Source of the DNA: Escherichia phage BananaBelafonte
Length of the DNA: 51,510 bases
Sequence record: PP925845.1
Strand: one strand, 5' to 3'
Shown here: piece after piece, positions 32,318 to 33,449 of the stretch
Layout: the number at the start of each line of letters is the position of its first letter
Position numbering within the stretch: the stretch's first letter is position 1
Program-made: the position numbers and the translations under genes
Notes under the pieces: model-generated
Databases searched by the model: none
Seen by the model: the letters and a program-made list of their open reading frames with translations, nothing else
What the model was told of the DNA's origin: nothing

Positions 32318-32347
32318 AAAGGAGCCTTTCGGCTCCTTTTTTATTTC
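32318..32347. terminator. bidirectional intrinsic terminator after ssb
   Basis: AAA, hairpin GGAGCC-TTTC-GGCTCC, then TTTTTTATTT, between convergent genes. Confidence 0.7.
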
Positions 32348-32592
32348 TCGCTTTCTGCGATACCCAGGACGGCAATCACCTTTAAAGCGATCCGCTTTGC
32401 GAGTTCCGTTTGCTGTGAGTTCAGCTTTCCGGTTGTCATGATCGACAACATGCCGCTCATACTCCCCAGGCTATTAAAGTCAGTCATGGCTGATTTCATG
32501 ATCGCCATTTGTGAATGACCCTCTTTCGCAATCGCGTGCGCTCGCCCTGATAGGTCACTAACAACCTGATCGATTCCATCACTCTTTGTCAT
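32341..32592 (-). CDS. hypothetical protein (83 aa)
   Basis: ORF with GAGGT RBS; overlaps upstream gene by 14 nt. Confidence 0.4.
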   Translation of the reverse strand: MTKSDGIDQVVSDLSGRAHAIAKEGHSQMAIMKSAMTDFNSLGSMSGMLSIMTTGKLNSQQTELAKRIALKVIAVLGIAESEK

Positions 32593-33076
32593 TTTCTGCT
32601 ACCTCTTGAGGCTGATCCGGTTGCGCTGGCATGTTAGGCCACGGACTAATCGACTCACGCGCGGTTGCTGGTTTTTCCGGCTCAATCCCCAGGAATTTCC
32701 CGACAAACTCACCCACGAAATTAGAACTATCGCTCACATAAACGTGCATCCGATCCAGATCGGAGGCGGTCACGCTATTTGGTGAGATCAGAATGCGCTG
32801 ATTATGAAAGCCGATATACATCACATTCACAGGGCGCTCAATCGTGCCAGGGTTGGGAGCGATAACGCCCATAATCCAGCAATAATAGATTTGACCATCA
32901 CCCAAAGGCTCACAGCCAGCGTTTAACCAGTTCACTTTTTGGTGAGGGAACACCATAGAGGAATCGGTTGCATCGCGTCGCAACGACCAATTAACGCCGC
33001 CAATCTCAATGTTTGAGCGTGGGCGCATACCGTTAAATTGTGTCACACCTGCACCGTTGTTGTTCATGTTTTGCAT
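32579..33076 (-). CDS. hypothetical protein (165 aa)
   Basis: ORF with AAGAGG RBS. Confidence 0.45.
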   Translation of the reverse strand: MQNMNNNGAGVTQFNGMRPRSNIEIGGVNWSLRRDATDSSMVFPHQKVNWLNAGCEPLGDGQIYYCWIMGVIAPNPGTIERPVNVMYIGFHNQRILISPNSVTASDLDRMHVYVSDSSNFVGEFVGKFLGIEPEKPATARESISPWPNMPAQPDQPQEVAENDKE

Positions 33077-33089
33077 ATCGGCTTACCTC

Positions 33090-33449
33090 TTACTTAGATT
33101 TCATTTCATGGATTGCACAGATACAAGCCGCAGCAAGATCCGTTAATTCGTCCACGATTTCGTGATGCGAGCCGCTCGCCTTTTCAGCCATTAGCTCTTT
33201 ATACTCCATTTCGACAATCGCCATTAAACCGCCTGGCTTGTCGATGTGCGCCGCCCAGGTTTTAGGATAGTGCTTAGTTCGATCCATAACCTCCGCCATA
33301 GCTGCACCATGTTCATGATCTCCATAATCATGGCGATCTCGTCCACGTCGATTATCTCGCTTATGATGTTCAGAATCATGATCAGATCCCCCAATAGAAA
33401 TGCGCGGTAAATGCACGCGCGGCATTCGGTAGCCAGCAAGTTTAATCAT
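33090..33449 (-). CDS. hypothetical His/Asp-rich protein (119 aa)
   Basis: ORF with AAGGA RBS after an intrinsic terminator; His/Asp/Arg-rich N-terminal third. Confidence 0.45.
   Translation of the reverse strand: MIKLAGYRMPRVHLPRISIGGSDHDSEHHKRDNRRGRDRHDYGDHEHGAAMAEVMDRTKHYPKTWAAHIDKPGGLMAIVEMEYKELMAEKASGSHHEIVDELTDLAAACICAIHEMKSK

Follow-up and report, generated by a model that had tools for sequence, protein, structure and literature searches.

A co-inherited four-gene cassette of virulent siphoviruses that includes a putative truncated MazG-derived domain

In Escherichia phage BananaBelafonte (sequence record PP925845.1; the whole stretch of 51,510 nucleotides is called the window below), three small minus-strand genes, here called A, B and C, lie between ssb and a gene for a Gly-rich protein that precedes A. 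We found that A, B and C are the promoter-distal part of a co-inherited four-gene cassette, in the order Gly-rich gene, hairpin, A, B, C with tightly packed genes, and that this cassette passes horizontally between virulent siphoviruses and can be lost. A appears to contain a truncated domain derived from MazG. Our tentative reading is that A works as a minimal nucleotide pyrophosphatase dependent on Mg2+, or at the least binds nucleotides, and that B and C are its non-catalytic partners; we regard this function as possible but short of probable. The parts of the cassette in the window are as follows (aa, amino acids).

Gly-rich gene: 33500-34204, minus strand; 234 aa, gene 1 of the cassette.
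Terminator-like hairpin between the Gly-rich gene and A: 33464-33487 (stem-loop 33468-33487, T-run to 33464), minus strand; predicted from sequence and folding.
Gene A: 33090-33449, minus strand; 119 aa; after a short conserved N-terminal segment come a disordered tract rich in His, Asp and Arg and, at the C-terminus, a MazG-like domain of three helices.
Gene B: 32579-33076, minus strand; 165 aa, an alpha/beta orphan whose acidic C-terminal tail is disordered.
Gene C: 32341-32592, minus strand; 83 aa, with no family or solved-structure match.
Bidirectional terminator hairpin between C and ssb: 32318-32339, both strands; from the terminator scan; it closes both the cassette and the convergent ssb gene.

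By tblastn against phage genomes, A was detected in 114 records, B in 139 and C in 160. The matches came from T1-like phages, Queuovirinae (Seuratvirus and Nonagvirus), Nonanavirus, Sashavirus, Eiauvirus and Yersinia X1/PY100-like phages, and the order A, B, C was invariable in the annotated examples. The four window proteins were then mapped on 39 loci (numbered with L below) drawn from Drexlerviridae, Queuovirinae, Eiauvirus, Yersinia X1-like phages and unclassified IMG/VR contigs; in about 35 of the 39, the Gly-rich gene stood ahead of A-B-C in the same orientation. A full HMMER scan of 1.84 billion proteins with the B profile returned only 49 representatives. The most distant relatives of B, 20-25% identical, lie on contigs from AT-rich gut or rumen metagenomes and keep the same block: the Gly-rich protein has 172-256 aa there, the A-like protein 81-115 aa and the C-like protein, after B, 65-73 aa, and stop codons usually overlap the next start codon. 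In bacteria and archaea (one genome from each of 185,579 species), the search for B relatives was negative, and the family therefore appears to be confined to phages, mostly virulent ones. IMG/VR viral contigs queried with P0127 yielded no loci.

The end of the late region is the commonest position of the cassette. It follows a lateral tail-fibre or tail gene in Drexlerviridae, Queuovirinae and Eiauvirus and at L048 and L053, and it lies after spanin, endolysin and holin genes at L051, after lysozyme and holin genes at L042, near the genes for endolysin and Rz (an Rz-like spanin) at L056, before the gene for an internal virion protein at L043, after the large terminase subunit gene in Salmonella phage 9NA, and among early genes in Yersinia X1. 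The cassette is nonetheless autonomous. A role in lysis as a spanin substitute was considered and rejected as not needed: relatives have a complete holin/endolysin/u-spanin cassette elsewhere, and L056 has its Rz-like spanin.

The cassette is also accessory (moron-like), being patchy in close relatives, present in at least five unrelated lineages and naturally lost with viability retained. The major capsid type of the window occurs in 849 phage records against the 139 with B, many of which are not Drexlerviridae; across related phages the distribution was patchy, with the cassette in a minority of those sharing the capsid. In T1-like phages that lack it, such as SRT8, the fibre gene adjoins ssb. 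A first-pass annotation of the window had seen in this site a position where accessory genes commonly accumulate. The accessory part of that view is borne out by these counts and by the deleted, truncated and nonsense copies described below; independent accretion is not, since the genes form a co-inherited cassette of fixed order with the Gly-rich gene.

Several phages carry damaged cassettes. In phage 9NA (L004, 4876-5441), gp12 consists of the first ~45 residues of the Gly-rich protein fused to unrelated sequence, gp13 corresponds to B from about residue 58 onward, and A is gone; as their sequences read, gp12 and gp13 are remnants of a deletion that took out A entirely, together with the first third of B and the bulk of the Gly-rich gene. 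In P0041, which was seen on 11 contigs of up to 61 kb, the Gly-rich sequence as far as CCCETNLNIER is joined to B from about residue 81 and A is deleted; the junction of this natural deletion fusion falls at an IER microhomology common to both parts. Only part of C is left in phage Tls, and A-B-C occurs without the Gly-rich gene at L029 and L053. In Escherichia phage SeppeHuegi (BASEL; L003, 3763-4545), an in-frame stop codon interrupts the Gly-rich gene (QGQ to QG-stop), which is annotated as two hypothetical proteins, bas24_0023 and bas24_0024, while the A-B-C trio is intact. Judging from this stop codon, SeppeHuegi is a natural Gly-rich knock-out.

The gene calls in the window are robust. 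The first-pass annotation, made from the letters of the window alone, had described three minus-strand genes of 119, 165 and 83 aa with good ribosome-binding sites, between two terminators and opposite to the recombination genes, and each of these points agrees with our analysis. Open reading frames were found exactly there, with Shine-Dalgarno-like sequences 6-9 nucleotides (nt) before the starts (AAGGAA for A, AAGAGGT for both B and C); the two hairpins listed above stand on either side; and the exonuclease VIII-like, recombinase and ssb genes lie on the plus strand, convergent with A-B-C. C begins before B ends, with an overlap of 14 nt (32579-32592; ATGACAAAGAGTGA). Each of the three proteins matched one PHROG family over its full length (A, E = 8e-47; B, E = 2.5e-87; C, E = 2.6e-42), the four families of the cassette being 9157 (A), 8329, 7239 (C) and 9288 (Gly-rich, E = 2.5e-116). 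Homologous clusters in the protein collection numbered 35-41 per gene (36 for A, 35 for C), and an exact look-up of all four proteins in the same collection returned zero identical sequences. The window is a T1-like phage of the Drexlerviridae; its region 32100-34300 is 96% identical to Klebsiella phage vB_KM5a1-KLB26 (KLB26 below) and 81% identical to Escherichia phage PaulSarasin. Crude ratios of nonsynonymous to synonymous polymorphism (pN/pS) against five relatives were 0.29-0.51 for A and 0.12-0.22 for B, and against four relatives 0.12-0.30 for C; these values indicate that all three genes are under purifying selection. Because of the PHROG matches, the homologous clusters and the low pN/pS, we take A, B and C to be genuine genes, not chance reading frames. 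An Rfam scan of the region gave no family at threshold, and its sole sub-threshold match fell on the terminator hairpin.

After the stop codon of the Gly-rich gene, AAAGCGCC-TACG-GGCGCTTT followed by a T-run forms a hairpin with a folding free energy of -14.5 kcal/mol. The automatic terminator scan missed it because the stem absorbs part of the T-run. Only about 14 nt separate the T-run from the start codon of A, leaving no room for a promoter between the hairpin and A, and A-B-C would therefore be expressed only by read-through. No convincing match to a sigma-70 promoter was found upstream of the Gly-rich gene. A strong stem-loop was present at the gap between the Gly-rich gene and A in all nine divergent cassettes, with differing stem sequences that in most cases are followed by a T-rich stretch; the loci with a stem-loop at the same position include L002, L003, L005, L006, L042, L043, L045 and L048. 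A strict hairpin with a T-rich tail occurred in 13-14 of 21 distinct intergenic regions, and most of the others had a stem-loop but lacked a clean T-run. Between A and B and between B and C, by contrast, the genes mostly overlap or stand no more than 20 nt apart. That the position is kept though the sequence differs suggests that something between gene 1 and the trio is under selection, be it attenuation or a stable 3' end, and the layout implies that gene 1 would be expressed at a high level and A-B-C at lower, closely linked levels.

The first-pass annotation had reported no recognisable motifs in the three proteins. For A this proved wrong, as its C-terminal domain contains an acidic quartet of the MazG type, EXXE-x15-EXXD. 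The features of A, all on the minus strand, are as follows (pLDDT, predicted local distance difference test).

His/Asp/Arg-rich low-complexity tract, residues 21-50: 33300-33389, minus strand; from composition, alignment and pLDDT.
MazG-like three-helix domain, residues 45-119: 33093-33317, minus strand; holds PxTW, EXXE and EXXD.
PxTW motif: P62, T64 and W65, minus strand.
EXXE motif (E82, E85): 33195-33206, minus strand.
EXXD motif (E101, D104): 33138-33149, minus strand.

The quartet, E82-x2-E85-x15-E101-x2-D104, conforms to the pattern EXXE-x(12-28)-EXXD. Its spacing is the same as that of E39/E42/E58/D61 in Escherichia coli MazG and that of E119/E122/E138/D141, the crystallographic Mg2+ ligands of Mycobacterium tuberculosis MazG (PMC10014863). 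In an alignment of 32 A sequences, E80, E82, E85 and E101 were invariant, and D104, P62, T64 and W65 were nearly so. In the family alignment, the N-terminus is short and conserved, the low-complexity tract after it varies, and the C-terminal domain of ~70 residues is well conserved. In the AlphaFold2 model of A, residues 1-44 are of low confidence or disordered, and helices at 45-59, 74-92 and 95-118 have pLDDT >90; from their positions relative to the inter-helix turn, E85 would face E101 and E82 would face D104.

Profile searches placed A near MazG without reaching family thresholds. We tested the Pfam families PF03819 (MazG) and PF01503 (PRA-PH) at their curated thresholds, and no profile match for A exceeded either. 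PRA-PH scored 15.5 bits on A (E = 0.023), below its cut-off of 21.3 bits; among the 32 family members, 7 matched PRA-PH (best E = 4.4e-4) and 3 matched MazG (best 0.011), again below threshold, as was the match of the A profile to AF_0060 in the PDB (E = 0.75). Foldseek with the A model returned MazG, HisE, AF_0060 and DCTPP1 as nearly all of the top 20, at E values of at least 0.47, and AF_0060 superposed on A over 72 of 88 residues at 2.5 Å with sub-threshold fold scores. By hhalign, A and E. coli MazG were aligned on exactly the motif stretch (P = 0.23). The Yersinia protein X1_26 keeps acidic residues at the quartet positions, with Glu replacing D104 (LEAEYMEY...RELTEI); the rest of it is too divergent for tblastn detection. 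A Seuratvirus orthologue of A had been labelled 'putative pyrophosphatase' by the BASEL annotators. On the motif, the alignment and the model, we call A a MazG-derived truncated domain and do not file it as a proven member of an enzyme family.

The suggestion in the first-pass annotation that the His/Asp-rich protein may bind metal is plausible, except as to the site. The protein is indeed rich in His, Asp and Arg (12 H, 10 D and 9 R among 119 residues; 6 D, 6 H and 5 R within the 30 residues 21-50). The tract, however, is disordered (pLDDT <50), gapped and variable in the alignment and ~12 aa longer in the window than in most relatives, and distant relatives have CECECDCE or Ser/Asn/Asp runs in its place. 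Conservation points to the acidic quartet rather than the His/Asp tract as the metal site, and A probably binds Mg2+ in the clade of enterobacterial phages. The DNA coding for the tract also contains the densest cluster of GATC in the window (33281-33385; 5 sites in 200 bp), which has 300 such sites in all against ~201 expected. GAT-CAT and GAT-CGN codons probably give rise to the cluster as a by-product, but a Dam-like methyltransferase is encoded in relatives.

In the function that we tentatively favour, A would bind Mg2+ and cleave, or at least bind, a nucleoside-triphosphate-like molecule. Candidate ligands are an alarmone such as (p)ppGpp, as for Atd1, or a non-canonical (deoxy)nucleoside triphosphate. 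B, with its acidic tail and no catalytic residues, and the small protein C may complete, regulate or target A, and the hairpin would hold the trio below the level of the Gly-rich protein. The net effect would be an accessory benefit when natural hosts are infected, not a contribution to virion assembly. The phage MazG-like protein Atd1 has been reported to deplete (p)ppGpp and to protect against TIR-STING toxicity (bioRxiv 10.1101/2022.06.09.495361), and so illustrates one way in which A might aid a phage. Cyanophage MazG is an active pyrophosphohydrolase that is reported not to hydrolyse magic-spot nucleotides (PMC6850273), so that the substrate of A is not inferable from the likeness.

Five points weigh against a pyrophosphatase. 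First, A ends 15 residues after D104, after the third helix, so that the fourth MazG helix is missing from the AlphaFold2 model, whereas the first domain of E. coli MazG runs ~40 residues further past EXXD. Second, in metagenome relatives EXXD reads NLIH, ELVH, NLVH, ELIH or GLIR, and E85 is once replaced by Asn; with the quartet degenerate in that clade, catalysis cannot be the conserved function of the whole A family. Third, A is the most often missing member of the cassette by the record counts given above. Fourth, the model does not account for the tie of the trio to the Gly-rich gene. Fifth, the site beside tail-fibre or lysis genes suggests late expression, a poor fit to alarmone removal. 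An active A would be smaller than any MazG-type pyrophosphatase known and might depend on a partner in trans; with an inactive A, the cassette would contain an enzyme scaffold recruited for another purpose.

In the model of B, residues 15-130 (pLDDT ~90) form a six-stranded sheet with two helices, followed by the disordered acidic tail. Only G70 and Y113 are invariant in the family alignment, a pattern without conserved catalytic residues that is, on this alignment, not that of an enzyme. The model of B gave no fold match in the PDB, where SciW and PA0094 were among its neighbours; B had nothing in Pfam, NCBIfam or PADLOC; 37 members of its family compared with Pfam at E up to 10 showed no recurrent family; and its profile gave only noise against the PDB (E = 1.6). 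Membership of B in the Eag/DcrB family (DUF1795) was tried and rejected, as hhalign found no similarity between B and DcrB, and Eag serves below as a working analogy only. C had no match beyond chance level in Pfam, NCBIfam or the PDB (profile against the PDB, E at least 0.31); in distant cassettes, the C-like gene of 65-73 aa after B keeps a C-terminal L-x-x-QQ-x-E...IA-x-K-(V/I)-IA. The Gly-rich protein has at its N-terminus (residues 17-45) a conserved glycine zipper, Gly 23, 27, 31, 35 and 39, and in its remainder a middle part rich in Q, N, S and T, a conserved CCC motif and a C-terminus that is rich in Pro and contains CC (PTPPTPPTGCCG). Its profile found as best PDB matches the fusion-peptide region of influenza HA2, residues 3-55 (GLFGAIAGFIEGGW...), at E = 0.06-0.3, which is not significant; the likeness is probably compositional, and this search gave no significant similarity to class I viral fusion proteins. 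Depositors have labelled the gene 'lateral tail fiber chaperone' or 'putative sugar-binding protein'. C and the Gly-rich protein gave chance-level matches only in Pfam, NCBIfam and PADLOC. No segment in the four proteins reached the Kyte-Doolittle 19-residue mean of 1.6 for a transmembrane segment (maximum 1.31), none of the four matched a known defence or anti-defence family, and family and structure searches found no homology to core structural or assembly proteins.

An alternative centred on the Gly-rich protein is, in our judgement, unlikely. According to it, the trio handles an abundant, membrane-active late protein with a fusion-peptide-like zipper at the N-terminus and a coiled-coil-like, Cys-containing body; B would shield the N-terminus in an Eag-like manner with A and C as co-factors, and the role would be at the envelope, in superinfection exclusion, lysis modulation or membrane disruption. 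The synteny of four genes over deep divergence speaks for it, as do the conserved glycine zipper, the non-catalytic conservation pattern of B and the weak matches to the HA2 fusion peptide, although the last are probably compositional. The conserved attenuator-like hairpin would set gene 1 high and the trio low, as in operons for a structural subunit and its assembly factors, and the cassette directly follows holin/endolysin/spanin genes at L042 and L051 and is near them at L056. However, the comparison of B with DcrB came out empty, the trio occurs without the Gly-rich gene at L029 and L053 and intact beside the nonsense-interrupted gene of SeppeHuegi, and no window protein has transmembrane-like hydropathy. 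A bolder form of this idea, which we consider improbable, holds that the four genes are a previously undescribed system, in which an abundant fusion-peptide-like Gly-rich protein is served by three low-level handlers (one truncated and MazG-derived, one of orphan fold and one small partner) in a membrane-directed late function, for example as a second envelope-disruption or superinfection-exclusion device, spreading horizontally among siphoviruses of enterobacteria and gut bacteria.

A could instead be a pseudo-enzyme, and the trio purely protein-binding factors, for example inhibitors or decoys of a host defence or process, with the MazG scaffold and the acidic tail of B as interaction surfaces; this too seems to us unlikely. 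Consistent with it are the loss of the canonical EXXD in the distant clade, the missing fourth helix of A, the disordered acidic tail of B together with its lack of catalytic residues, the restriction of the family to phages, and a patchy, mobile and dispensable distribution that is typical of counter-defence genes. In the enterobacterial-phage clade, however, the quartet is strictly kept while its surroundings change, which argues for a retained metal site there; moreover, no known anti-defence or defence family was matched, and inhibitors that act early are not usually encoded at the end of the late region.

A role as accessory or assembly factors of the tail fibre, be it as chaperones or as a fibre-associated adhesin, is in our view improbable. 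The cassette does follow a lateral tail-fibre or tail gene directly in Drexlerviridae, Seuratvirus/Nonagvirus, Eiauvirus, L048 and L053, and the depositors' labels on the Gly-rich gene point the same way. Between the window and KLB26, though, the fibre is only 52% identical whereas the cassette proteins are 98-100% identical, and the cassette therefore does not co-vary with the fibre. The fibre also appears to have a C-terminal chaperone domain of its own; the cassette is away from fibre genes in Yersinia X1, in 9NA, at L042 and at L046/L047; the majority of T1-like phages sharing the capsid are without it; and broken copies occur in viable phages. The last possibility, that three unrelated small genes accumulated independently at a permissive site between convergent operons, as the first-pass annotation had it, is very improbable: the site is a boundary of convergent transcription units with terminators on both sides, and cassette-less T1-like phages such as SRT8 have the fibre gene beside ssb, but synteny contradicts this reading, with order, spacing and overlaps fixed in at least five unrelated lineages and in ~20% identical relatives, and all three genes are under purifying selection.

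Two further features of the window were noted. The lateral tail-fibre gene (34361-36997, minus strand) contains a 63-bp tandem repeat in 4.3 copies (36216-36485) that encodes Ala-rich repeats, and the contrast between its product, only 52% identical to the KLB26 fibre, and the flanking genes, 90-100% identical to those of KLB26, suggests a recent exchange of the fibre. The stretch 28001-30000 has a G+C content of 0.41-0.45 against ~0.50 elsewhere; it covers the minus-strand genes at 28213-29206 and the next intergenic region, between the J-like tail-tip and recombination genes.

The families of the cassette had been catalogued separately as of unknown function, and one A orthologue had its BASEL label; PHROGs records neither their linkage nor the MazG-like character of family 9157. 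What is new here is the joining of four PHROG families into one mobile unit, the internal hairpin, the precise quartet in a truncated domain and the natural knock-outs. A description of the cassette was not found in the literature, whether by PHROG number or by BASEL locus tag. Its genes go unmentioned in the KanT1 and BASEL papers, and neither the eiAU genome paper nor the Sfin-1 virion proteome held functional information on them. The 'hypothetical protein' families PHROG 9288, 9157, 8329 and 7239 prove to be one mobile functional unit common to T1-like phages, 7-deazaguanine-modifying Queuovirinae, fish-pathogen phages, Yersinia phages and uncultured gut phages. The putative Mg2+ site, the conserved attenuator and the natural knock-outs (SeppeHuegi, 9NA) offer handles on its function. 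The practical consequence is modest, namely improved annotation for a few hundred phage genomes, several of them therapy candidates.

With respect to known systems, B and the Gly-rich protein recall the Eag (DUF1795) chaperones and their prePAAR effectors in type VI secretion (PMC7773334), where a small alpha/beta protein is likewise encoded beside a glycine-rich hydrophobic segment at an N-terminus. The Eag chaperones SciW and PA0094 are among the structural neighbours of B, but B does not belong to DUF1795 by sequence or fold. For the reading of A as a minimal pyrophosphatase, Atd1 and cyanophage MazG are parallels in kind, as phage-encoded accessory proteins of MazG type. They differ from A in being much longer, and A belongs to a cassette that lies at the end of the late region. 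The closest likeness is to the MazG superfamily (E. coli and M. tuberculosis MazG, HisE/PRA-PH, AF_0060, DCTPP1), with which A shares the helical hairpin and its E-x2-E-x15-E-x2-D spacing; the Trp of PxTW stands 17 residues before the first Glu in A, that of CPWD 16 before its own in MazG. In contrast to members of this superfamily, which have four or more helices, A has three and no C-terminal helix, and it differs further in its disordered His/Asp/Arg N-terminal extension and its sub-threshold sequence and fold scores. Finally, A is found neither alone nor in an operon of the mazEFG type, but always within the four-gene phage cassette.

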